Assembly: GCA_029260875.1 (NCBI GenBank)
Contig: JAJDCL010000027.1
Coordinates: 7,354 to 71,353, forward strand
DNA from: Candidatus Saccharimonadota bacterium
GTDB lineage: Bacteria; Patescibacteriota; Saccharimonadia; Saccharimonadales; OFTM59
DNA length: 64,000 bases
Reading direction: 5' to 3'
Shown: positions 5,154-54,294 of the stretch, piece by piece
Layout of the letters: each line of letters begins with the position of its first letter
How positions within the stretch are numbered: the stretch's first letter is position 1
Position numbers and translations under genes: made by a program
Notes under the pieces: model-generated
Seen by the model: only the letters and a program-made list of their open reading frames with translations
What the model was told of the DNA's origin: nothing
Database searches by the model: none

Positions 5154-5402
5154 ATGGTTATGGCAGATAGTTTGGCAGATATTTTAGGCAAGCAGCGCTA
5201 TGACGCACCTGATGAAATCGGCATTATAAAAACGTTTGTTGAAAAACGGTTTCAGCACACACCTAATGTGGCAGTTAAGCAGTCACAAATTATTATAGTA
5301 GTGCCGAATTCCGCCCTGGCTGGCAGCTTGCGCATGTATTTGCATGAGCTCAAGACATTATGTAAAACCGATAAGCGCCTAGTTATACGGATCGGCCATT
5401 AA
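5154..5402 (+). CDS. DUF721/DciA-like small protein
   Basis: HTPNVAVKQSQIIIVVPNSALAGSLRMYLHELKTL...RLVIRIG fits the DUF721 pattern (strand, 'wa.eL', terminal 'i.i.vG'). Confidence 0.5.
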   Translation: MVMADSLADILGKQRYDAPDEIGIIKTFVEKRFQHTPNVAVKQSQIIIVVPNSALAGSLRMYLHELKTLCKTDKRLVIRIGH

Positions 5403-6023: not shown

Positions 6024-6590
6024 TTAGCTGGAATATAGCTTAACGTCACGCACAAATTCTCGGTACTCAGGAATCTGCTTTTGGAATAACCTTTGTACGA
6101 GGCTGGCATTGCCAGCGAATGATCCGTATTTCTTGCCGCAGCTGGTTGACCATAGCCGAATAAGATCATCGCCAAATTCTTCTATCTGATATACGTAGCG
6201 CTGACCTAGAGGACAAACACCTTTTTCGTCTGTTGCCTGTGCTTCCTTTCGGTGGTTGTAGCCAGCGTTCTTCAGGGCATGTAGAAACTCGTCGTAAGCT
6301 GCTTGGGTGTTGGGAAACTCCTGTGTCTTGCTAACCGCCTTGTTATAACCATTAAGGACTTCAACCCGACGAATGTTGCGATCTACGCTTATTCGGATAG
6401 TGCGGTGCAGCTCTTCTGCGTTTATTTCGCCCTCAATCTCGTACACAGCCCTGGCGCCAGTGTCCGCGTAGTCTGTCAAGTTAATTTGCCGATGATTTGG
6501 TTGGGTTGGCGTATCCGGACCATCAAATATCAGCATGATCACAGCGATCACGAGCACAATGATACCGATTACTGCCAAAACTGCTTTCAT
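6024..6590 (-). CDS. Membrane-anchored hypothetical protein
   Basis: N-terminal TM helix (AVLAVIGIIVLVIAVIMLIF) followed by a soluble domain; no family recognised. Confidence 0.55.
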   Translation of the reverse strand: MKAVLAVIGIIVLVIAVIMLIFDGPDTPTQPNHRQINLTDYADTGARAVYEIEGEINAEELHRTIRISVDRNIRRVEVLNGYNKAVSKTQEFPNTQAAYDEFLHALKNAGYNHRKEAQATDEKGVCPLGQRYVYQIEEFGDDLIRLWSTSCGKKYGSFAGNASLVQRLFQKQIPEYREFVRDVKLYSS

Positions 6591-8154: not shown

Positions 8155-10806
8155 TTATAATTCGCCCCAGTTTTTGCCTATGCTGGTGTCTACGGTGAGC
8201 TTTACAGGAAGTTGATGAACGTTTTCCATGATTTCTTTTACTAACTTGGCGGTTTCCTTGGCGCTGTCTTCGGGGCATTCAATTAATATACTGTCGTGAA
8301 TCTGAAGGAGCATTTTACATGGGGTAGTTTTTAAATTGTCGTATATATGAACCATCGCAAGCTTCATTAAATCGGCAGCGCTACCCTGAAATGGCATGTT
8401 TACTGCAGCCCGCATAGCCGCCTCGCGCACCATAAAATTAGACGAATGCACATCAGGCGTCGGACGGCGTCGGCCAAAGATAGTCTCTACATACCCCTCA
8501 TCCTGAGCTTGCTTTTTAACTGACTCAATATAAGCTAGCAGCTTGGGCCGGACCTCAAAATATTTTTCTATAAAGCGCTTTGCAGCTTCGTATGCCATGC
8601 CGGTAGCCTGTACCAAGCCGTGTGTACTAAGTCCATACATAACACCGAAGTTTACAACCTTGGCGTCGCGACGCATGGTTTTTGTAACTTCTTCAGGTGT
8701 GCGACCGTGGATTTCTGCAGCCGTAGCCGTGTGCACATCTATGTCTTTATTAAACATCTCAATCAGGTTGTCGTCGTCACACAAATAAGCAGCTAAACGC
8801 AGCTCAAACTGCGAGTAATCAGCACTTATTAGTACATTCCCTGGCGCAGCCACAAATGCTGTTCGTATACCCTTACCCAACTCTGTACGCACAGGTATGT
8901 TTTGCAGGTTCGGATCAACCGAGCTTAAACGACCGGTTTGAGCAACAGTAAGGGCGTAGGTCGTGTGCAGACGTGATTTCTCATCTATCATTGTTGGCAG
9001 CGTATCAACATATGTGTTCTTTAGCTTTGCAACCTCACGGTATTTGGTAATCAGGTCAATAATGGGGTGAGTGGCCCTAAGCTTATCTAGCTCGCTTGCA
9101 GCGGTTGAGTACCCTGTTTTACCACGTTTAATCCCTGCGGTAGGCAAGTTAAGCTTAGTGAATAAAATCTCTGCAAGCTGCGAAGGCGAACTTATATTAA
9201 ACTCTTGGTCGGCATAACCATAAATCTGTTGTTCTAGGTCGCTAATTGTATCCTCAAGCTGCTCAGACATCTTCGCCAAGTGCTTAGTATCTAGCTCAAT
9301 GCCCTCGTATTCCATTGCAGCCAAAACAGCAATAACCGGCCATTCTATGATCTGAGCAAGTTTTTCAACCTTTGGCATTTCTGCTAAATCTTTAACTTGC
9401 TGGTCGTACAAAGATTTTATGATGTGCGTCATTTCACCAGCTCGCTCAATTAGCTCTTCATCAGATAAATCCTCAAATGATGAGCCGTCATAGCCCAGAT
9501 CGGCGCTAGCGAGTTCTGTCAACGTCTGCTCTCGGCGAAGCGAATTTAGCAAAAACGCTCCGATAAGCACGTCGTGCCTAACCTTGTTTAGGTCAACACC
9601 CAGGTTATACCCAATCTTTATGACAGATTTTACGTCGTGGCCAATTAATTCTAGTTTCTCAAGTTTCGCGCCTATTTTAGACCGTACTGCTTTGGCTGAT
9701 ATTTTTGTAAGGTCTAACGCATAGGCGGTTTTGCCGTCCGTGCTAAGTATTAAAACTTTGGGGCCCACGCCGTGTTTGCCGGATGAACGCCCATAAACAA
9801 ACACCTTGCCAGAATCTGGCAGCTTCAATTGTTCTAGGTCTTTTTCTGACTCAATCAGTATTGTTTTAGTCTTAGAATTTTGATCATAAACGTGCGGGGC
9901 ATCCCGGCTTTCTATGACCTGCATAGCCTCTGGCAATTGACGTACTAAAGTGCGAAACTCATATTTTTGCAGAGTGTCACGAACTAGCTCTGGGTTACAT
10001 TTGCTGCCGTCTACTTCTTCTAGGTTTAGTTTTATAGGGGCATCTGTCCAAATAGCCGCTAATTTCTTGCTCAGGTATGCCAGGTCTTTACCCGCCTCAA
10101 GCTTCTTACGAACACTATCTTTAAGCAGTGCTAAGTTTTCATATATGCCATCTAAAGTTTTGTACTGTTTTAGTAGGTCAATCGCACCTTTTTCACCGAT
10201 TCCTGGCACGCCCGGGATATTGTCTGATGAATCGCCTTTTAAGGCTTTTAAATCCAAAAATTGAGTTGGCAGGATCCCGTATTTTTCAGTAAAACTTTCC
10301 GGATTAAAGTGCTCGATATTACTTAGCCCTTTTTTGAGCGCATATATATTGACATGTAGGTTAATCAGTTGCAGCATGTCCAGGTCACTTGTTACCAGCA
10401 TAGTCTCAATATCTTGCTCGTTTGCCTGTAGCGCCAGCGTACCCATGATGTCGTCGGCCTCGTAGTCATCAAGCTCATAAAGCGGCCAGCCAAAGGCTTT
10501 TAGCAGCTCTTGTAATATCGGTATCTGAACAGCAAAATCCGCTGGCGCAGGCTTGCGGCCTGCTTTGTATTCCGGATACATTTCTAGACGCTTGCGAATA
10601 TTAGTCTTGGGTTTGTCCCACGCAACAGCGACGTAATCCGGTTTTAGGCGCTTAATTACCTCCAGTGCCATCACAGCAAAGCCATAAACACCCCCGGTTG
10701 GCGTGCCATCACGAGTCGACAAATTGGGCATAGCGTAATAACCACGGTAAAAAACACTCTTACCGTCAATTATTGCCAGTCGTTTACGTTCGCCGCTCAT
10801 ACTCAC
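8155..10806 (-). CDS. polA: DNA polymerase I
   Basis: 883 aa with a 5'-nuclease N-terminus. Pol motifs DYSQFELR (A), RRDAKVVNFGVMYG (B) and QIHDS (C). Confidence 0.97.
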   Translation of the reverse strand: MSMSGERKRLAIIDGKSVFYRGYYAMPNLSTRDGTPTGGVYGFAVMALEVIKRLKPDYVAVAWDKPKTNIRKRLEMYPEYKAGRKPAPADFAVQIPILQELLKAFGWPLYELDDYEADDIMGTLALQANEQDIETMLVTSDLDMLQLINLHVNIYALKKGLSNIEHFNPESFTEKYGILPTQFLDLKALKGDSSDNIPGVPGIGEKGAIDLLKQYKTLDGIYENLALLKDSVRKKLEAGKDLAYLSKKLAAIWTDAPIKLNLEEVDGSKCNPELVRDTLQKYEFRTLVRQLPEAMQVIESRDAPHVYDQNSKTKTILIESEKDLEQLKLPDSGKVFVYGRSSGKHGVGPKVLILSTDGKTAYALDLTKISAKAVRSKIGAKLEKLELIGHDVKSVIKIGYNLGVDLNKVRHDVLIGAFLLNSLRREQTLTELASADLGYDGSSFEDLSDEELIERAGEMTHIIKSLYDQQVKDLAEMPKVEKLAQIIEWPVIAVLAAMEYEGIELDTKHLAKMSEQLEDTISDLEQQIYGYADQEFNISSPSQLAEILFTKLNLPTAGIKRGKTGYSTAASELDKLRATHPIIDLITKYREVAKLKNTYVDTLPTMIDEKSRLHTTYALTVAQTGRLSSVDPNLQNIPVRTELGKGIRTAFVAAPGNVLISADYSQFELRLAAYLCDDDNLIEMFNKDIDVHTATAAEIHGRTPEEVTKTMRRDAKVVNFGVMYGLSTHGLVQATGMAYEAAKRFIEKYFEVRPKLLAYIESVKKQAQDEGYVETIFGRRRPTPDVHSSNFMVREAAMRAAVNMPFQGSAADLMKLAMVHIYDNLKTTPCKMLLQIHDSILIECPEDSAKETAKLVKEIMENVHQLPVKLTVDTSIGKNWGEL

Positions 10807-30328: not shown

Positions 30329-30441
30329 AACTCTCTAAATGCCAGGATAATTTTTCACCGCATAATTCACACTTCACAGCAATTTCGCATGTTTCATTAC
30401 AGGAATGGCAAATGCAAAATGACAAATTGATGAAAAGTGTT

Positions 30442-30459
30442 AAATGTAAATTGTTAAAT
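30442..30459. repeat. AT-rich intergenic motif, copy 2 (AAATGTAAATTGTTAAAT)
   Basis: 17 of 18 identical to 36949..36966. The larger block 30424-30460 aligns with the reverse complement of 1296-1327 (AAATTGATGAAAA...ATGTGAATTGTTAAATA). Confidence 0.75.
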
Positions 30460-30479: not shown

Positions 30480-31004
30480 GTGAATGATTTGTGGGAGGCT
30501 TTTTGGTTCTTTTTGCCAGCTGGCTTTGCCAATATGGCCCCCGTACTTGCAGCCAGAATGCCAGGTTTAAAGGGGTGGAATGCGCCACTAGATTTAGGCA
30601 GGTCTTGGCAAGGAGCACGAATATTCGGCGACCATAAAACTTGGCGGGGACTTATTTCCGGCACTATTTTTGCAGCTTTTATAGGCTGGGTTCAGTACCG
30701 ATTTATAGCTACAAGTCCGGAGCCTTTGTGGTTTATACTCCTGGCGACGGGCGCTATGGGCTTTGGCGCGCTCCTGGGTGACGCTATAAAAAGCTTTATA
30801 AAGCGGCGCCGAGGGATAGCCTCTGGCAATGCCTGGGTTCCTTTTGACCAGATCGACTATATTGTCGGTGGCCTAATCTTTGCCGGGCTTTTTATAAGAC
30901 TCGGGGTCAGCCAGATAATCTTGATTTTTATAATTTATTTTGGCCTGCACCTGATTGTCAGCTACGCGGGCTATCTAACCGGATTTAAAAAGAAACCAAT
31001 CTAA
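30480..31004 (+). CDS. CDP-archaeol synthase (CarS/DUF46)-like membrane protein
   Basis: GTG start with AGGAGG 7 nt upstream. FLPAGFANMAPVL...PLDLG...GDHKTWRGLISG...GDAIKSFIKRRRGI matches the CarS family pattern. Confidence 0.7.
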   Translation: MNDLWEAFWFFLPAGFANMAPVLAARMPGLKGWNAPLDLGRSWQGARIFGDHKTWRGLISGTIFAAFIGWVQYRFIATSPEPLWFILLATGAMGFGALLGDAIKSFIKRRRGIASGNAWVPFDQIDYIVGGLIFAGLFIRLGVSQIILIFIIYFGLHLIVSYAGYLTGFKKKPI

Positions 31005-32937: not shown

Positions 32938-32987
32938 ATTTTACATTTATCAGTTCACAATTCACATTTATTTTACATTTATCAGTT
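32938..32987. repeat. Two perfect 18-nt direct repeats ATTTTACATTTATCAGTT flanking a TTCACAATTCACATTT core
   Basis: Copies at 32938-32955 and 32970-32987 (32-nt period). The spacer contains the ACAATTCACATTT motif shared with 1304-1316. Confidence 0.85.
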
Positions 32988-33083
32988 AATCGGTGGGTTT
33001 ATGCTGGTTATGATTAGTAATAAATGGTAAATTGGTAATTGAAAAATGATAAATCCGCCGATAGGCGGGCATGGGGGTGGAAA

Positions 33084-35193: not shown

Positions 35194-36852
35194 CTACATG
35201 CCCATCATGCCACCGCCCATGCCGCCCATATCTGGGGCGCCGCTGGCTGGGGCTTTTGGTTCAGGCACATCTACTACTAGCGCGCCCATTGTCATGCTGG
35301 TTCCGGCAATAGAAACTGCGTTTTGGATAGCTTCTTTTGTAACACGGGTTGGGTCAACCACGCCGGCAGACTTAAGGTCTACTAGTTTGCCAGCCTCATT
35401 CACGTCAACACCCTGTCCAGGCTTAGCAGCTTTTACAAGCGGTAGCCATTCATCAGGGTTAAGCCCGGCATTAGTCAGAAGGATTCTAAACGGCTGCTCA
35501 AGAGCACTACGCAAAATCTGCGCGCCGGCTGATTCTGAATCATTACCAACAACCTTGACGTCTTTTGCCAGGTTGATCAGCGTTACGCCACCACCGGGTA
35601 CGATACCTTCGTCCAGCGCAGCTTTTACGGCAGCAACCGCATCATCAACGCGGAATTTCTTTTCTTCTATCTCGGTCTCTGTCGCGCCACCGACTTTGAT
35701 GACGGCAACTTTGCCCTGAAGTGCTGCGCGTCGCTTCTCAAGATTTTCCTTTTCGTATTCACTAGTTGCAGCAGCAACTTGCTGATTGATCTGCACAATA
35801 CGGTCCTTGATGGCCACAGCAGTACTGCCACCTTCAATTATCGTAGTTTCATCCTTGGTAACTATGACTTTACGAGCAGTCCCGACTACGTCCAGCTCAA
35901 CGTTTTCAAACGTCATGCCACGGTCATCAGTAATGACTTGGCCACCAGTCAAAATCGCAATGTCTTCTAGCACTTCCTTTCGGCGGTCACCAAAAGCCGG
36001 AGCCTTGATAGCAATGGTATTAAACACACCTTTTAGGCGGTTCAAGATCAGAGTCCCAAGCGCCTCACCTTCTACATCCTCAGCAATAAGTACTAGTTCC
36101 TTTTTGCCACCTTGGGCTAACTTCTCTAGCAGAGGCAAAAATTCTTGGATAGAACTAATTTTCTTATCAGTAATTACAATCGCCGGCTTATCATATACAG
36201 CCTCCATGCGGGCTGGGTCAGTCACCATGTACGGGCTGACAAAGCCGCGGTCAAAGGTAAAGCCTTCTACGACTTCGCTTTCAAGCGCCAAGCCCTGGCC
36301 TTCTTCTACAGTCACCACGCCGTCTTTGCCGACTTTATCAATCACGTCTGCTATCAAGTTGCCGATAACTGCGTCCCCGGCAGAGATAGTTGCCACTTCA
36401 GCTACACGCTGCTTGTTGGCTTTGATGTCTTCAGTAAACTTGCCCAAGCCCTGGATTACGTCCTGCGCGGCCGCTTCAAGACCTTTACGCAACTGCATGG
36501 GGTTGTGTCCAGCAGCAATTAGCTTGTTTGCTTCGTTCAAAATGTGATAAGTCAAAACCGTCACGGTTGTCGTACCGTCACCAGCCATGTCGTTCATCTT
36601 GCTGGCAGCTTGTTTGATTAGCTCTGCCCCGACTTTGTAGCCCAAAGTTTCGTCGTCTAGGTCAGCCAGTTCCATACCCTTGGCCACAGTCACACCGTCG
36701 TGCGTTACGGTTGGGTTGCCGTAGCTTTTGCTTATAACTACGTTACGGCCCTTCGGACCCATAGTTGTCTTAACCGCGTCATAAAGCACCTTTGCGCCAC
36801 CCAGCACTCTGCGCCGAGCGTCATCATCATAAAAAACTTTCTTAGACATCAT
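35194..36852 (-). CDS. groL: Chaperonin GroEL
   Basis: AKVLYDAVKTTMGPKGRNV, the GDGTTT motif, and a C-terminal GGM repeat tail. Confidence 0.98.
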   Translation of the reverse strand: MMSKKVFYDDDARRRVLGGAKVLYDAVKTTMGPKGRNVVISKSYGNPTVTHDGVTVAKGMELADLDDETLGYKVGAELIKQAASKMNDMAGDGTTTVTVLTYHILNEANKLIAAGHNPMQLRKGLEAAAQDVIQGLGKFTEDIKANKQRVAEVATISAGDAVIGNLIADVIDKVGKDGVVTVEEGQGLALESEVVEGFTFDRGFVSPYMVTDPARMEAVYDKPAIVITDKKISSIQEFLPLLEKLAQGGKKELVLIAEDVEGEALGTLILNRLKGVFNTIAIKAPAFGDRRKEVLEDIAILTGGQVITDDRGMTFENVELDVVGTARKVIVTKDETTIIEGGSTAVAIKDRIVQINQQVAAATSEYEKENLEKRRAALQGKVAVIKVGGATETEIEEKKFRVDDAVAAVKAALDEGIVPGGGVTLINLAKDVKVVGNDSESAGAQILRSALEQPFRILLTNAGLNPDEWLPLVKAAKPGQGVDVNEAGKLVDLKSAGVVDPTRVTKEAIQNAVSIAGTSMTMGALVVDVPEPKAPASGAPDMGGMGGGMMGM

Positions 36853-36948
36853 TGTTCTCCTTTAGAAAAATTTACTATTTATCAAATATCATTTTCCAAT
36901 AATTTGTCATTTCTCATTTAAAAAATGGCTAATGGAAAATAATTTGTT

Positions 36949-36966
36949 AAATGTGAATTGTTAAAT
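36949..36966. repeat. AT-rich intergenic motif, copy 3 (AAATGTGAATTGTTAAAT) inside the groES-groEL spacer
   Basis: Exact reverse complement of 1299..1316. Embedded in a tandem TTGTTAAATG x2 (36944-53 and 36958-67). Confidence 0.8.
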
Positions 36967-36980
36967 GAAAAATCGTACTG

Positions 36981-39898: not shown

Positions 39899-41194
39899 TT
39901 ATTGTAATTTTAGTAGTTCTTGGGCGATTTGGTGTTCGTCCCAGGGGAGTTTTTTGTCGCCCATGTTGCGGTAATTTTGGTGGCCTATGCCGGCCAACAG
40001 GACCACATCGCCCTTTTTGGCCTCTTTGAAAGCAGCCTTAATCGCCTCTTTGCGATCCGCGATTTCAACAGTTTTGCTCTGCCCTTTCGCTTTTTTAATG
40101 CCCGCCATTATTTCTTGGCGTATAGAGGCAGGGTCTTCGGTATAGGTCTCGTCGTCGGTTAAAAAGATACGGTCAGCATTTTTGGCAGCAACCTCGCCCA
40201 TCATGGGTCGTTTAATTTTATCGCGGTCACCAGTGGCGCCAAAAACTACTAAAATTCTTCCTTTGCTAGTATCCCTTAGAGTTTTGAGAGCATTTTCGAG
40301 TGCGTCAGGCGTATAAGCGTAATCAACTATTACCGAAAAGTTCTGGCCAGCTAACACATTTTCCATTCGGCCGGGTACTGATTGTAAAGTTGCAAGTCCT
40401 TTTGCTATCTTTTCAGGTGTTATGCCCAACACGCTCACGGCAGCTGCCGCACATGCCGCGTTATAAGCGTTAAATTCGCCTGGTAACTGTATGTTCACAG
40501 GTATTTTATTGCCATCTAAATCAAGTTCAAAGTCGGTGCCCCTAGACGACAGCTTTATCTTACGCATAGTCACGTCACTGCCGCCCTTCTGGCCATAAAT
40601 GCTACAAGCCCCTACGCTCTGCTTGGCGAAGTAGTCAAACCACTTATCATCGTGATTTAGCACACAGTAAGTTGGCTGCATATAAAGGTTGAATAAGCGA
40701 GCTTTAGCCTCTGCGTAACGCTCCATAGTACCGTGGTAGTCCAGGTGTTCTTGGGTTAGATTAGTCATCACGGCTACCTCTATGGGAATACCACGAAGCT
40801 TGTGCTGATGCAGAGCATGGCTGGTCACTTCTAAAATAATAAAGTCTACTTCTGCCCGCTTGGCTTTGCGAAAGAAGTTTAATAAATCCGCTGTTAACGG
40901 CACCGTTGTATGGCGCAGATTGGGCTCCGCCTTGCCCGCCACCTCCACCACAGCAGTAGTAAACATCGCTGTCTTAAAACCGGCAGACTTTAAGGTCGCA
41001 TTAATAAACATGCAGGTGGTGGTCTTGCCGTTGGTGCCAGTTACAGCAATTACCCTAGCATTACGGGCCGGAAACCCGTAGCGAGCATGCGTTATAACCC
41101 TACGGCTTCGGCGGTAGCCTTCCTCCGCAAGTCGCGTAGCGCCCTTCGGCAGGACCTTGCGCACAATTTTCTTTGGGTTCATGCCTGCTGCCAT
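39899..41194 (-). CDS. murE: Mur ligase, UDP-N-acetylmuramoyl-tripeptide synthetase (MurE-like)
   Basis: VTGTNGKTTT P-loop, GEFNAYNAACAAA and PGRME. At 431 aa it has a short N-terminal domain. Confidence 0.75.
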   Translation of the reverse strand: MAAGMNPKKIVRKVLPKGATRLAEEGYRRSRRVITHARYGFPARNARVIAVTGTNGKTTTCMFINATLKSAGFKTAMFTTAVVEVAGKAEPNLRHTTVPLTADLLNFFRKAKRAEVDFIILEVTSHALHQHKLRGIPIEVAVMTNLTQEHLDYHGTMERYAEAKARLFNLYMQPTYCVLNHDDKWFDYFAKQSVGACSIYGQKGGSDVTMRKIKLSSRGTDFELDLDGNKIPVNIQLPGEFNAYNAACAAAAVSVLGITPEKIAKGLATLQSVPGRMENVLAGQNFSVIVDYAYTPDALENALKTLRDTSKGRILVVFGATGDRDKIKRPMMGEVAAKNADRIFLTDDETYTEDPASIRQEIMAGIKKAKGQSKTVEIADRKEAIKAAFKEAKKGDVVLLAGIGHQNYRNMGDKKLPWDEHQIAQELLKLQ

Positions 41195-41248
41195 ACTTCT
41201 AATGATACATCACCCTCTAAAAGAACGCTCAAAAATTCCTAAACCCAA

Positions 41249-41286
41249 CTTAACAAATGTGGTCCGATCGGACACATTATGTTAAG
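41249..41286. promoter_or_regulatory. Palindromic operator-like site, copy B (CTTAACAAATGTGGTCCGATCGGACACATTATGTTAAG)
   Basis: Two-fold symmetric around CGATCG. The right arm TGTTAAGAT reads as an extended -10 (TGnTAAGAT) 6 nt before the ATG of the PaaX-like gene. Confidence 0.6.
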
Positions 41287-41294
41287 ATATTGTC

Positions 41295-41774
41295 ATGTCT
41301 AGGAAGAAGTATTCTACGCTGGAATATGTGCTGATTTCGTTAATTCCTTATTCCAGACCAAATATGCTACTAAGTTTTAAGCCTCATGAGTACTTTAATG
41401 AACTGGAACGTATAAGCAGGGCTAAACGGTCTACACTCCAGAGCACCTTGGCCCGCGCACAAAATAAAGGCCTAGTGCAAAGACACAAAGGGGTGCCCAG
41501 GCTGACCGCAGAAGGGAAAATCCGGGTCAGGCCATATACCGCACAAATTTTAAACAAAGACGTGGTACTTATGGTGATATTTGATATCCCCGAAGAGATT
41601 AAATATCGCCGGAGACAATTTCGGCGATTGCTGCGGCAACTTGACTTTAACCAAACACAAAAAAGCGTGTGGACAACCCGTTTTGATTATCGTAAGGAAG
41701 TCATTGAAGCCGCTAAAATTCTCGGTATCCGCGAGTACGTGCAAATTTTTGAGTCGGCCAGAATTTCTCTGTGA
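41295..41774 (+). CDS. PaaX-like transcriptional regulator (wHTH + Cas2-like ferredoxin-fold C-terminal domain)
   Basis: DVVLMVIFDIPEEIKYRRRQFRRLLRQLDFNQTQKSVWTT fits the PaaX-family 'w.lv.fdiPe..r..R..lr..L...gF..l..svW' pattern. The N-terminus is wHTH-like (TLQSTLARAQNKGLV). Confidence 0.5.
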   Translation: MSRKKYSTLEYVLISLIPYSRPNMLLSFKPHEYFNELERISRAKRSTLQSTLARAQNKGLVQRHKGVPRLTAEGKIRVRPYTAQILNKDVVLMVIFDIPEEIKYRRRQFRRLLRQLDFNQTQKSVWTTRFDYRKEVIEAAKILGIREYVQIFESARISL

Positions 41775-41775
41775 T

Positions 41776-41813
41776 ATTAACAAAACAAGTCCTATCGGAC
41801 ATATTATGTTAAG
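41776..41813. promoter_or_regulatory. Palindromic operator-like site, copy C (ATTAACAAAACAAGTCCTATCGGACATATTATGTTAAG)
   Basis: 32 of 38 positions identical to copy B. Lies 2 nt after the regulator stop and 47 nt before tsaD. Confidence 0.55.
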
Positions 41814-41859
41814 TGTTGGTAGTAGGTGGTTGAGTGGATTTCGCTTATCATAGCTGTGA

Positions 41860-42933
41860 ATGAAAATACTTGGAATTGAGACGAGCTGTGATGAGACTGC
41901 TGCGGCTATCGTAGAGTTCACTGACCAACGAAAACTGCGACTTTTATCTAATGAGATTTTAAGCAGTATGGACTTGCACGCTATGTACGGCGGAGTGGTA
42001 CCAGAGATTGCAGCGCGCTCGCATATCGAGGCCATTATGCCTGTAATTGAACGAGCCTTAGCGGATGCTAACTGTACATGGGACGGCATTGATGGGGTCG
42101 CAGTAACTTACGGTGCGGGTCTTGGGGGCTCTCTGTTAATCGGCGTTTTAACTGCCCGGACTTTGGCAATAATCAAAAACAAACCGCTCTATAGAATTAA
42201 CCATGTTGAGGGACATATTTACGCTAACTTTTTAACTGAGACTCCCCTGCCCGGTTACGTCTTGCCCAAAAACCAGCCGGAGTTTCCGCTGCTTGGCTTA
42301 ATTGTCTCTGGGGGGCATAGCCAATTAGTGCTTTGGAAAGATCATTTTGACTATACCCTGCTCGGCCAGACTCAGGACGATGCTATCGGCGAGGCGTTTG
42401 ATAAGGTGGCCAAGGTTCTTGGTCTACCCTACCCCGGTGGCCCAAACCTTGGCAAAAAGGCACATGACGGAAACCCGCTCGCCTTTGACCTGCCCAAATC
42501 TAAAATGCCCGGCAAATATGACTTTAGTTTTTCTGGCATAAAAACGGCCGTTTTAAGGCTTGCGCAGGCTCAGATTGGGGAAGATTACAGCTTTCCCTCT
42601 TTCAGGCTGGCAGAGAGGCTATCTGAAGCCCAGAAAGCAGACATTGCCGCCAGCTTCCAGCGAGTAGCCATAGAAACAATCGTGGACAAAACCATTCAGG
42701 CGTATGAAGAGTTTCAGCCAAAGACGGTTGTTGTGGGCGGAGGCGTTGCAGCCAGCCTTGAGCTACGCCAACAGTTATCACGACGACTCCCCTTGCCTAT
42801 TGAATACACCGACCCCAAACTTTGCACAGATAACGGCGCTATGATTGCTGCATTAGGATGCTACAAATCAGTCCTTAACCAAGCACGGGCTGACCCGTAC
42901 ACCCTGGATATCCATCCTAACCTGAGCATGTAG
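41860..42933 (+). CDS. tsaD: tRNA N6-adenosine threonylcarbamoyltransferase
   Basis: MKILGIETSCDETAAAIV, SHIEA, VSGGHSQL and GGGVAAS motifs of TsaD/Kae1. Confidence 0.95.
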   Translation: MKILGIETSCDETAAAIVEFTDQRKLRLLSNEILSSMDLHAMYGGVVPEIAARSHIEAIMPVIERALADANCTWDGIDGVAVTYGAGLGGSLLIGVLTARTLAIIKNKPLYRINHVEGHIYANFLTETPLPGYVLPKNQPEFPLLGLIVSGGHSQLVLWKDHFDYTLLGQTQDDAIGEAFDKVAKVLGLPYPGGPNLGKKAHDGNPLAFDLPKSKMPGKYDFSFSGIKTAVLRLAQAQIGEDYSFPSFRLAERLSEAQKADIAASFQRVAIETIVDKTIQAYEEFQPKTVVVGGGVAASLELRQQLSRRLPLPIEYTDPKLCTDNGAMIAALGCYKSVLNQARADPYTLDIHPNLSM

Positions 42934-43476
42934 CTAATCTATAAACCGCCAGCGTGGTTGCCCTTCTTCAGTGTATTCTGCAGCTAAGCCCTGTAGAACA
43001 GCGCGTCGCCACATCGCCCGCACCCATTCGCTCCTGTTGTTCACGGCAGGACCAGAGTCTAAGGGTTCGCCAAAAATTAATTTGCTGATGCTGTTCATGG
43101 CTAGTAGACGACGGCGCCCATACCCTTTCTCCCTAAAGCCCTCAGTAGTTTCTATGTAAGCGACAAATGGTGCTTGGCCTGAGCCCTGGGGTCGCCTGAT
43201 GCCCCCATGACCCGTCCTCTTATTGGAATTGTTAAACTCTACTACGTACACCATGGCGTCATAACCTTCCCCGGTAATTTTAATGCCCTGTCTCTGGTAA
43301 GGCAGCCCGTAGAGCCTGGCATCATCATACTTTATTACAAGAGGCTCCCCCACCCCTTCAACCACCGTAATATCCGGCAACACTAAAGTACTAAAAAAAC
43401 TGCGTGCACCCTGTGGCAAATCTTCTAATTTCAGCATTTCAATCGGTGGTGGGTTTTTTTCAAACTGCTCTGACAT
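42934..43476 (-). CDS. Hypothetical protein, possibly GNAT-like acetyltransferase
   Basis: VAYIETTEGFREKGYGRRRLLAM resembles GNAT motif A (R/Q-x-x-G-x-G/A). Weak. Confidence 0.35.
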   Translation of the reverse strand: MSEQFEKNPPPIEMLKLEDLPQGARSFFSTLVLPDITVVEGVGEPLVIKYDDARLYGLPYQRQGIKITGEGYDAMVYVVEFNNSNKRTGHGGIRRPQGSGQAPFVAYIETTEGFREKGYGRRRLLAMNSISKLIFGEPLDSGPAVNNRSEWVRAMWRRAVLQGLAAEYTEEGQPRWRFID

Positions 43477-51076: not shown

Positions 51077-51168
51077 TGGCGGAGAGGGAGGGATTCGAAC
51101 CCTCGATACCCGTTGCCAGGCATAGCACTTTTCGAGAGTGCCCAGATCAACCACTCCTGCACCTCTCC
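51077..51168 (-). tRNA. tRNA-Ser (anticodon CGA)
   Basis: Hand fold: acceptor GGAGAGG/CCTCTCC, anticodon stem GCACT/AGTGC with loop CTCGAAA, a long variable arm, T-arm GAGGG-TTCGAAT-CCCTC, and an encoded CCA. Confidence 0.9.
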
Positions 51169-53979: not shown

Positions 53980-54072
53980 GGAGAGGTACCCAAGAGGCTG
54001 AAGGGGTCGGTTTGCTAAATCGATAGGGGGGAGCAATCCCCCGCGAGGGTTCAAATCCCTCCCTCTCCGCCA
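53980..54072 (+). tRNA. tRNA-Ser (anticodon GCT)
   Basis: Acceptor GGAGAGG/CCTCTCC, anticodon loop TTGCTAA, long GC-rich variable arm, T-arm GAGGG-TTCAAAT-CCCTC, and an encoded CCA. Confidence 0.9.

Positions 54073-54202: not shown

Positions 54203-54294
<92 letters not shown>

Follow-up and report, generated by a model that had tools for sequence, protein, structure and literature searches.

Positions 41249-41813 of a stretch of 64,000 nucleotides (nt) from contig JAJDCL010000027.1 of a Candidatus Saccharimonadota bacterium probably constitute a portable, self-contained autoregulatory cassette, in which the gene of a minimal PaaX-type repressor would be placed between its own two operators. 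The whole stretch is referred to here as the window, and the two palindromes bracketing the gene as O1 (upstream) and O2 (downstream). This proposal is built upon directly observed features, comprising the sites and their geometry, their conservation throughout the family, the co-variation between protein and sites, and the presence or absence of the cassette as a block among related genomes. The elements of the cassette, of which O1 is also found at the same place in two related loci (L001 and L002) and in the family, are the following.

41249..41286, no strand: O1, a 38-bp palindromic putative operator (CTTAACAAATGTGGTCCGATCGGACACATTATGTTAAG)
41262..41273, no strand: core of O1, a perfect 12-bp palindrome (GTCCGATCGGAC) with a CGATCG centre
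41280..41288, + strand: extended -10-like element (TGTTAAGAT), with the hexamer TAAGAT at 41283-41288, in the outer right arm of O1 and 6 nt from the ATG
41295..41774, + strand: minimal PaaX-type gene, encoding 159 amino acids (aa), with a winged helix and a Cas2-like domain
41776..41813, no strand: O2, the second putative operator (ATTAACAAAACAAGTCCTATCGGACATATTATGTTAAG)

Two palindromes around a regulator gene

The dyad of O1 falls between 41267 and 41268, 27 nt 5′ of the ATG, and the site extends from about -47 to -9 relative to a presumed leaderless start. Besides the core, the outer arms of O1 are perfect too (CTTAACA/TGTTAAG). O2 starts 1 nt past the TGA stop codon (41772-41774) and ends 46 nt before the ATG of the neighbouring tsaD gene (41860), its dyad being placed 20 nt past the stop codon and 65 nt before the tsaD ATG, and its centre carries one mismatch (GTCCTATCGGAC). 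An earlier, sequence-only reading of this DNA had described these two copies, and its coordinates and letters matched the window sequence exactly, as did the placement of one copy before the 159-aa gene and of the other between this gene and tsaD. The symmetry that it saw around CGATCG in the first copy was recovered as the perfect central 12-mer, and the extended -10 that it saw 6 nt before the ATG was found at 41280-41288, with the ATG at 41295. However, the identity between the copies, given there as 32/38, was recounted as 31/38 (31/37 across TTAAC..TTAAG). Self-complementarity amounted to 28/38 positions in O1 and to the same number in O2.

Chance is excluded as the origin of the O1/O2 pair. 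It was observed that a 36-nt degenerate pattern had two matches in the window against 0.00 expected, that GTCCGATCGGAC with up to one mismatch had two against 0.05, and that the 19-nt right half had two against 0.02. Neither a third copy nor an orphan half-site was found in the 64-kb window with full-length, degenerate, core and half-site patterns.

Conservation of the layout in related loci

Palindromes were scanned in 80 related Saccharibacteria/Patescibacteria loci, and the statistics on paired sites were drawn from the 49 loci in which both palindromes were clear. The bracket layout was present in ~50-60 of the 80 homologous loci, in entirely different gene contexts, with palindromes of 30-40 bp, often perfect, one just 5′ of the start codon and the other from the stop codon onwards. 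In the 49 loci, the upstream dyad was mostly placed at -26 to -30 nt from the start codon and the downstream dyad at +14 to +25 nt past the stop codon, which was often included in the outer arm. Moreover, O2 kept a fixed position only with respect to the stop codon at the end of the regulator gene. The upstream and downstream copies of one locus shared a median identity of 32/40, whereas copies of different loci shared 18/40 (95th percentile, 26), and a third copy within ±4 kb was found in 0/49 loci. The family consensus can be written as CA-n-TTTTTGTCCG-R|Y-CGGACAAAAA-n-TG, with outer arms specific to each locus. Since O1 and O2 are kept to the same protein-specific consensus, the protein that binds O1 would also bind O2.

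The copies matched each other equally well in direct and in inverted orientation (31.3 vs. 31.6 of 40, p = 0.31), which indicates selection for a single symmetric consensus rather than recent duplication. An origin as direct repeats, through target-site or repeat duplication, was rejected, as direct identity was not above inverted identity and no flanking duplication was found at the window junctions. The only relatives sharing the order of Mur ligase gene, regulator and tsaD were L001, with a regulator 71% identical to that of the window, and L002 (59%). Both carried a palindrome at both positions, and a variant core (GTCCGACCGGGCAC) was common to the two copies of L002.

Some loci presented further peculiarities. 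In L042, a third palindrome (CGAAATAGATTGGACGGCCGTCAAATCTATTTCG, ~5203-5253) was found with its dyad ~766 nt past the regulator stop codon, sharing the core of the L042 O2 (GACGGCCGTC) and differing in its arms. The ndk gene of this locus was thus flanked by two family-type palindromes, although ndk itself is not a family member; NDK was the flanking gene in five loci. The contigs of L015, L032, L035, L068, L008 and L050, including contigs of 35-164 kb, ended at the upstream palindrome or within tens of nt of it, which is probably due to assemblies breaking where a palindrome is long and perfect, and not to multi-copy elements. In addition, L022 and L023, two contigs of the metagenome-assembled genome (MAG) CAYZCZ01, were 100% identical from ~-120 to ~+680 relative to the regulator start, with an upstream flank 90-97% identical, and were unrelated past ~+850. 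This shared segment could have arisen by recombination, or it could represent an assembly repeat or variation between strains. As it runs ~280 nt past the downstream palindrome to the contig end, it was set aside as uninformative regarding transposition.

Co-variation between the protein and its sites

Every protein column was scored against every half-site position, and the top coupling by far (z = 16) was found between residue 123 and the central base pair. Residue 123 is the x of the Q-x-S-V-W motif, in the β2-β3 hairpin of the Cas2-like domain. In the loci that could be used, Lys or Arg at this position was accompanied by a CGATCG centre in 32 cases, and Gln by CGGCCG in 21, with no exceptions. 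In a neighbour-joining tree built without column 123, ~18 residue changes and ~21 centre changes were counted, and several sister pairs contrasted in the state of residue 123 and centre. Since the states were interleaved on this tree, shared ancestry does not explain the correlation.

Arg107, in helix α1, was accompanied by C at half-site position 4 in 29/29 loci, compared with 4/20 for other residues; this C is part of the GTCC motif and corresponds to G on the opposite strand. Moreover, CC was found at positions 4 and 3 in 26/29 Arg107 loci. Residues S50, R54 and R77, from the recognition helix and wing, coupled with the outer positions 13-17. The window protein follows the same pattern, combining Lys123 with a CGATCG centre and Arg107 with C at half-site position 4. 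Together, these couplings point to a dimer disposed along the ~38-bp site, in which the two Cas2-like domains would sit together at the dyad and each winged helix would occupy one of the outer arms.

From this body of observations we infer dimer binding, contacts between domains and bases, repression and a role for O2. The dimer would bind the ~38-bp two-fold symmetric operator, its winged helices reading the variable outer arms and its Cas2-like dimer reading the conserved centre (CCG-R-Y-CGG) by means of helix α1 (Arg107) and the β2-β3 hairpin (Lys123).

The co-variation also bears on the idea that the gene is only a passenger and that something else binds the palindromes, for instance a host nucleoid protein, or a restriction-modification or methylation system targeting CGATCG/CGGCCG. 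These centres coincide with what we take to be common type II recognition sequences. However, in the ~400 kb examined, the sites were found solely in pairs flanking genes of this family, their arms are specific to each locus, and their centres co-vary with residues of the enclosed protein, so that another factor is a very improbable owner of the sites.

The enclosed 159-aa protein

The winged helix occupies approximately residues 30-78 (nt 41382-41528) and the Cas2-like domain residues 90-155 (nt 41562-41759), with R107 encoded at 41613-41615 and K123 at 41661-41663. Residues 93-155 matched Pfam PaaX_M (PF20803) with an E value of 5.7e-14 and 52.4 bits against a cut-off of 24, and the N-terminal matches to winged-helix Pfam families, at residues 35-69, were weak. 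The match to Pfam CRISPR_Cas2 was partial, covering residues 92-131 only (24.3 bits vs. a cut-off of 23.8), and that to NCBIfam TIGR01573 (Cas2) reached 21.1 vs. a cut-off of 24.5. PADLOC returned weak matches to Cas2 and to a Csa3 winged helix-turn-helix (wHTH), and PHROGs returned nothing useful.

An AlphaFold2 model obtained from 30 homologues (pLDDT 89) presented a winged helix formed by helices 30-41 and 45-57 and a wing at 61-70, and a β-α-β-β-α-β arrangement in residues 90-155. In a Foldseek comparison with the PDB, the top whole-length match of this model was E. coli PaaX (8a39); M. tuberculosis Rv0674 (3kfw) was matched full-length as well, and many Cas2 structures matched the C-terminal domain with TM scores of ~0.5-0.6, normalised to the Cas2 chains. 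A PDB sequence search revealed weak Cas2 matches and no PaaX, so that the link with PaaX is visible only through Pfam and the fold.

No Pfam match to PaaX_C or another C-terminal effector domain was found, and the protein ends at residue 159, right past the Cas2-like domain; therefore, it is devoid of a C-terminal effector domain. Transposase, recombinase, HUH and Y1 domains were likewise absent from the Pfam, NCBIfam, PADLOC and PHROGs matches of the protein. The FDIPE and Q-x-S-V-W motifs were invariant across the family, and so was the Cas2 Asp position, which lies within FDIPE. Since D-I-P-E is presumably compatible with a helix N-capping box too, its invariance is not evidence for catalysis.

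Regarding family size, 65 close clusters were found in a 90%-identity collection, with PF20803 precomputed for 65/65. Among 1.84 billion 50%-identity representatives, 84 clusters were retrieved at E <= 1e-30 and ~2,000 more distant short relatives at E <= 1e-10, and some database entries label family members as Cas2. Genomic matches came almost entirely from MAGs of Saccharibacteria and other Patescibacteria, with 1-3 paralogues per genome; several MAGs had two or three, and the palindromes of paralogues inside one genome differed. No relatives were found on IMG/VR viral contigs. A literature search returned no paper pairing PaaX with Cas2 or with Saccharibacteria, and nothing relevant on Patescibacteria regulators.

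Promoter geometry and probable autoregulation

The right arm of the upstream palindrome carries a -10-like hexamer. A TAnnnT motif was found by the right arm in 42/49 upstream copies vs. 15/49 downstream copies, at -12 to -7 from the start codon in the upstream ones, and this position indicates that the regulator mRNA is most likely leaderless. The leaderless layout is not special to the regulator gene, as 24/63 window genes presented TAnnnT starting 11-15 nt before the start codon (15% in shuffles), and a Shine-Dalgarno-like motif was found in only 15/63. Starts of the leaderless type, such as those at 6590, 28259, 41194, 41860 and 53707, look like the norm in this genome. In L081, a locus on a 1-Mb contig whose regulator (P0055) was seen on 16 contigs, the palindromes were placed at 9950-10003 and 10478-10530, with TAGTAT followed by 6 nt and the start codon. 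P0055 is called with a GTG start codon, uncommon in leaderless mRNAs, and its downstream palindrome is followed by TTTTT, unlike in most loci.

O1 would thus cover the whole core promoter, and since it spans this region, the bound protein should exclude RNA polymerase, resulting in negative autoregulation of the classical kind exerted by E. coli PaaX at its Px promoter. In E. coli, the PaaX operator TGATTC(N27)GAATCA spans 39 bp and consists of inverted half-sites, and it is through steric exclusion of RNA polymerase that PaaX represses its own promoter (PMC9493321). The sequence-only reading had taken the palindromes as operator-type sites of the PaaX-like protein, and the conservation of the bracket (L001, L002 and ~50-60/80 loci) and the co-variation of sites and residues bear this out. 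Its suggestion that the upstream copy overlies a leaderless promoter of an autoregulated gene also agrees with the -10-like hexamer in 42/49 loci, which makes such control plausible.

A probable second operator at the stop codon

O2 would act as an auxiliary operator, most likely as a roadblock and/or as a loop anchor. As a roadblock, O2 with its bound protein would stall the elongating polymerase ~15-20 nt before the site, within the last codons of the gene, and the stalled transcript, whatever its promoter, would have no stop codon and would yield no functional protein. In this way, the loss of the stop codon from the transcript would explain why O2 abuts the stop codon. Alternatively or additionally, O2 could pair with O1 through a loop of ~530 bp.

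It is improbable that the palindromes act at the RNA level instead, the downstream one as an mRNA 3′ hairpin (a terminator, a stabiliser or an RNase III target) and the upstream one as the terminator of the preceding gene. The downstream palindromes do start from the stop codon and form long hairpins (median -17 kcal/mol), and at the P0055 locus the hairpin is followed by TTTTT. However, T-runs followed 5/49 downstream copies vs. 7/49 upstream controls, the centre is itself palindromic (CGATCG/CGGCCG) and leaves no free loop, and the sequence, not pairing alone, is conserved. The distance from the upstream copy to the start codon is also fixed despite the orientation of the preceding gene, divergent in 40/73 loci, and nothing about a hairpin would make it change along with residues 107 and 123. 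In the window, O2 folds weakly (-9.8 kcal/mol). A known structured RNA was rejected, with no Rfam match at E <= 1 in 41000-42000, and so was an intrinsic terminator, with no terminator-like site in 40900-42100 and T-runs no commoner than in the upstream controls.

tsaD and the empty sites

The cassette of the window is placed between a divergent Mur ligase gene and tsaD. The neighbouring features, of which the two -10-like elements lie outside the module, are the following.

39899-41194, - strand: Mur ligase gene, divergent left neighbour
41202..41207, - strand: -10-like TATCAT of the Mur ligase gene (ATGATA on the + strand), 7 nt from the ATG at 41194 and 42 nt left of O1
41846..41851, + strand: -10-like TATCAT of tsaD, 8 nt from the tsaD ATG (41860) and 3′ of O2, conserved in L001
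41860-42933, + strand: tsaD, right neighbour

The sequence-only reading had proposed a dedicated repressor controlling both itself and the essential t6A enzyme gene, with O2 as the tsaD operator, which appears unlikely as an account of the cassette. This proposal draws on the placement of O2 between the regulator and a co-directional tsaD, kept in L001 and L002, and on the 5/23 co-directional loci in which O2 is found ~22-31 nt before the next start codon, as in the regulator's own promoter; in addition, protein bound to O2 could stop read-through into tsaD. However, O2 is set by the regulator stop codon in all contexts, with the next gene convergent in 41 and co-directional in 36 of 77 loci, and the dyad-to-start distance of the co-directional genes ranges from -517 to +41. 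Among the 147 flanking proteins, 115 Pfam families are represented; CBS is the commonest (11/147), and TsaD accounts for 3/147, confined to the clade of the window, L001 and L002. In the window and L001, the O2 dyad is placed at -65 of the tsaD start, and the window O2 spans -84 to -47 of tsaD, 5′ of its conserved TATCAT. A common regulated neighbour was ruled out by the 115 families, the random orientation and the scattered distances.

The relatives without a cassette point in the same direction. A metagenome search with the window TsaD retrieved five relatives (61-71% identity), and in three of them (L085, L086 and L089) the Mur ligase gene and tsaD were divergent and ~10-40 nt apart, with neither a PaaX-like gene nor a palindrome between them. 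On the TsaD tree, the empty L085 fell within the group of the cassette-bearing loci (the window, L001 and L002), and L086 and L089, which branch deeper, were empty as well. Therefore, O1, gene and O2 were gained as a whole in the promoter region between the Mur ligase gene and tsaD, and then lost or regained at least once. It follows that both neighbours manage without the regulator in close relatives, and that both palindromes belong to the regulator gene. Thus, the self-control proposed by the sequence-only reading stands, and the control of tsaD as the purpose of the regulator is not supported, given that O2 is tied to its own stop codon, that the neighbours fall in 115 families and that empty sites exist. 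The essential tsaD gene is probably not what the regulator serves, although a side effect on it, such as blocked read-through, may occur.

In L085 (1050-1074) and L089 (2180-2208), one palindromic -10 (AGTATACT) was observed at the right distance from both start codons. The starts of the Mur ligase gene and tsaD are ~20 nt apart in these loci and would form a very compact bidirectional leaderless promoter.

Gain and loss of the cassette as a block

The same block-wise behaviour could suggest a selfish mobile cassette, in which the palindromes would be element ends recognised, and perhaps cut, by the wHTH-Cas2-like protein, as in IS200/IS605 or REP/RAYT systems. With these the cassette shares clean empty sites (L085, L086 and L089), interleaved with cassette-bearing loci on the TsaD tree. 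The unit is very compact, with palindromes tight on both gene ends, its insertion contexts among housekeeping genes are diverse, 1-3 paralogues are found per genome, the whole cassette is either there or cleanly missing, with empty sites free of palindromes, and the Cas2-like domain keeps the invariant Asp position of Cas2 in FDIPE. However, the protein has no HUH, transposase or recombinase domain, extra palindrome copies were found in 0/49 loci (±4 kb) and none in the 64-kb window, and the differences between the sites of paralogues within a genome indicate that there was no recent proliferation. Moreover, synteny is held though the regulators are only 59-71% identical, direct identity is no higher than inverted, target-site duplication is not visible, and viral-contig relatives are lacking, all of which make mobility of this kind rather unlikely.

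A stronger version, in which the cassette is an autonomous element whose protein recognises the palindrome centres through its Cas2-like domain and employs the palindromes as ends when the element is excised, inserted or copied, is quite improbable. If true, it would represent a new class of mobile elements in Patescibacteria, with a free-living Cas2-type protein bound specifically to palindromic repeats, and it would bear on the origin of the association between Cas2 and CRISPR repeats.

Comparison with known systems

With PaaX of E. coli and Pseudomonas (8a39, 3l09), which represses phenylacetate catabolism, the 159-aa protein shares a winged helix followed by a Cas2-like dimerisation domain and, as far as sequence can tell, a long operator of inverted half-sites over its own promoter (in this case palindromes of 36-40 bp, with centres ~27-30 nt 5′ of the start codon). 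It differs by the absence of the C-terminal phenylacetyl-CoA effector domain, the PaaX of 8a39 having 305 residues, and by the lack of linkage to paa genes at its locus: paa families were not among the 25 most frequent Pfam families of the 147 flanking proteins, and the window neighbours are Mur ligase and TsaD. Unlike PaaX, the cassette has a conserved operator centre apparently read by the Cas2-like domain, and a second operator at the stop codon with no other target visible. To our knowledge, the Cas2 motifs FDI and Q-x-S-V-W, kept in the 159-aa protein, are absent from the E. coli PaaX sequence. The protein is thus a PaaX relative by fold and PaaX_M that fails two defining PaaX features.

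With Cas2, the CRISPR adaptation protein, it shares the ferredoxin-like fold and aligned sequence motifs of the C-terminal domain, and the association of a Cas2-type dimer with partly palindromic repeats of ~30-40 bp. However, the domain is fused here to a winged helix, and the 'repeats' are two sites around its own gene. Since neither cas1 nor a CRISPR array of regularly spaced direct repeats was found in the window, the protein is not a CRISPR Cas2. We know of no description of sequence-specific DNA reading by Cas2, such as that proposed here for the Cas2-like domain.

Other small regulators offer partial parallels. Lrp/AsnC proteins, which were among the structural matches, have a similar size (~150-160 aa), with an N-terminal wHTH and an oligomerising ferredoxin-like C-terminal domain, and many of them are autoregulated. 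However, their C-terminal domain is an amino-acid-binding RAM domain, not Cas2-like, the superposition was poor (TM ~0.25-0.3), and their genes are not flanked by pairs of long palindromes. The controller (C) proteins of restriction-modification (R-M) systems are also small autoregulatory proteins with a helix-turn-helix (HTH) and a palindromic operator on a leaderless promoter, but their HTH is of the Xre type, they are always R-M-linked, and their operators are upstream only. For C proteins and their C-boxes, family-specific operators were predictable by comparative genomics (PMC2632904).

The proposed role of O2 finds its parallels in auxiliary operators and roadblocks. In lac O2, gal OI and the intragenic sites of CcpA, CodY and PurR, a second repressor site lies a few hundred bp downstream and acts by looping or by blocking elongation. 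The cassette differs from these cases in that its second site is fixed at its own stop codon, across the whole family.

Points weighing against the proposal

Several points weigh against a self-repressing cassette as described. A repressor with detectable targets only beside its own gene brings no obvious benefit to the cell; the target search covered 64 kb of this genome and ±4 kb at the other loci, and more distant targets are possible. The window O2, having a mismatch in its core, may be a weaker site, and the role proposed for O2 is deduced only from where it lies, invariably beside the stop codon. The distance between O1 and O2 varies from 501 to 694 bp, and helical phasing is not evident. 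The co-variation is statistical, with a poorly resolved tree of short proteins, and residue-base contacts are not proven by it. The leaderless start of the regulator, read from the geometry alone, is most likely, and the start codons of related loci were set by a heuristic. Finally, ~20-30 of the 80 loci have no two clear sites, some being cut by contig ends and some being distant relatives.

Other features of the window

A 180-aa open reading frame on the - strand (42934-43476) converges on tsaD, with abutting stop codons (42933/42934). Searches of Pfam, NCBIfam, PADLOC and PHROGs gave no match for it, and a homologue is lacking from the related loci. A family of AT-rich repeats, with phased TTCACA, TGTTAAAT and AAATGTRAATTGTTAAAT, was found at 1286-1328, 30410-30459, 32938-33054 and 36870-36979, in several intergenic regions and in both orientations, one being placed 5′ of a groEL-like gene (35194-36852, - strand) and one before the gene at 30480; these may be sites of another regulator or curved promoter DNA. 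In addition, the tRNA-Ser genes CGA, GCT and TGA (51077-51168, 53980-54072 and 54203-54292) and a tRNA-Arg gene are contained within 3.2 kb, and the tRNA-Ser genes explain the long repeats D12, I2 and I4 of the window repeat scan.

Significance

Four aspects of this cassette are new, none of them being described in the literature searched: the two-domain form devoid of an effector domain, a Cas2-like domain that apparently reads the centre of the operator according to a simple residue-to-base rule, the constant placement of a second operator on the stop codon, and the gain and loss of the unit as a block. Saccharibacteria and other Patescibacteria have tiny genomes with few recognisable regulators, and their gene control is almost uncharted. 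The finding defines in these bacteria a family of ~160-residue predicted repressors together with their predicted operators, as well as a recognition rule that is simple and testable, in which the centre is CGATCG with Lys/Arg123 and CGGCCG with Gln123, and Arg107 is accompanied by C at half-site position 4. These data further suggest that a Cas2-like domain may be capable of sequence recognition at the centre of symmetry of a long operator, which, if true, would explain the great length of PaaX-type operators. The operator at the stop codon is an unusual design, and it provides a frame for considering both a dual lock, in which initiation and elongation would be blocked, and loop-based autoregulation.

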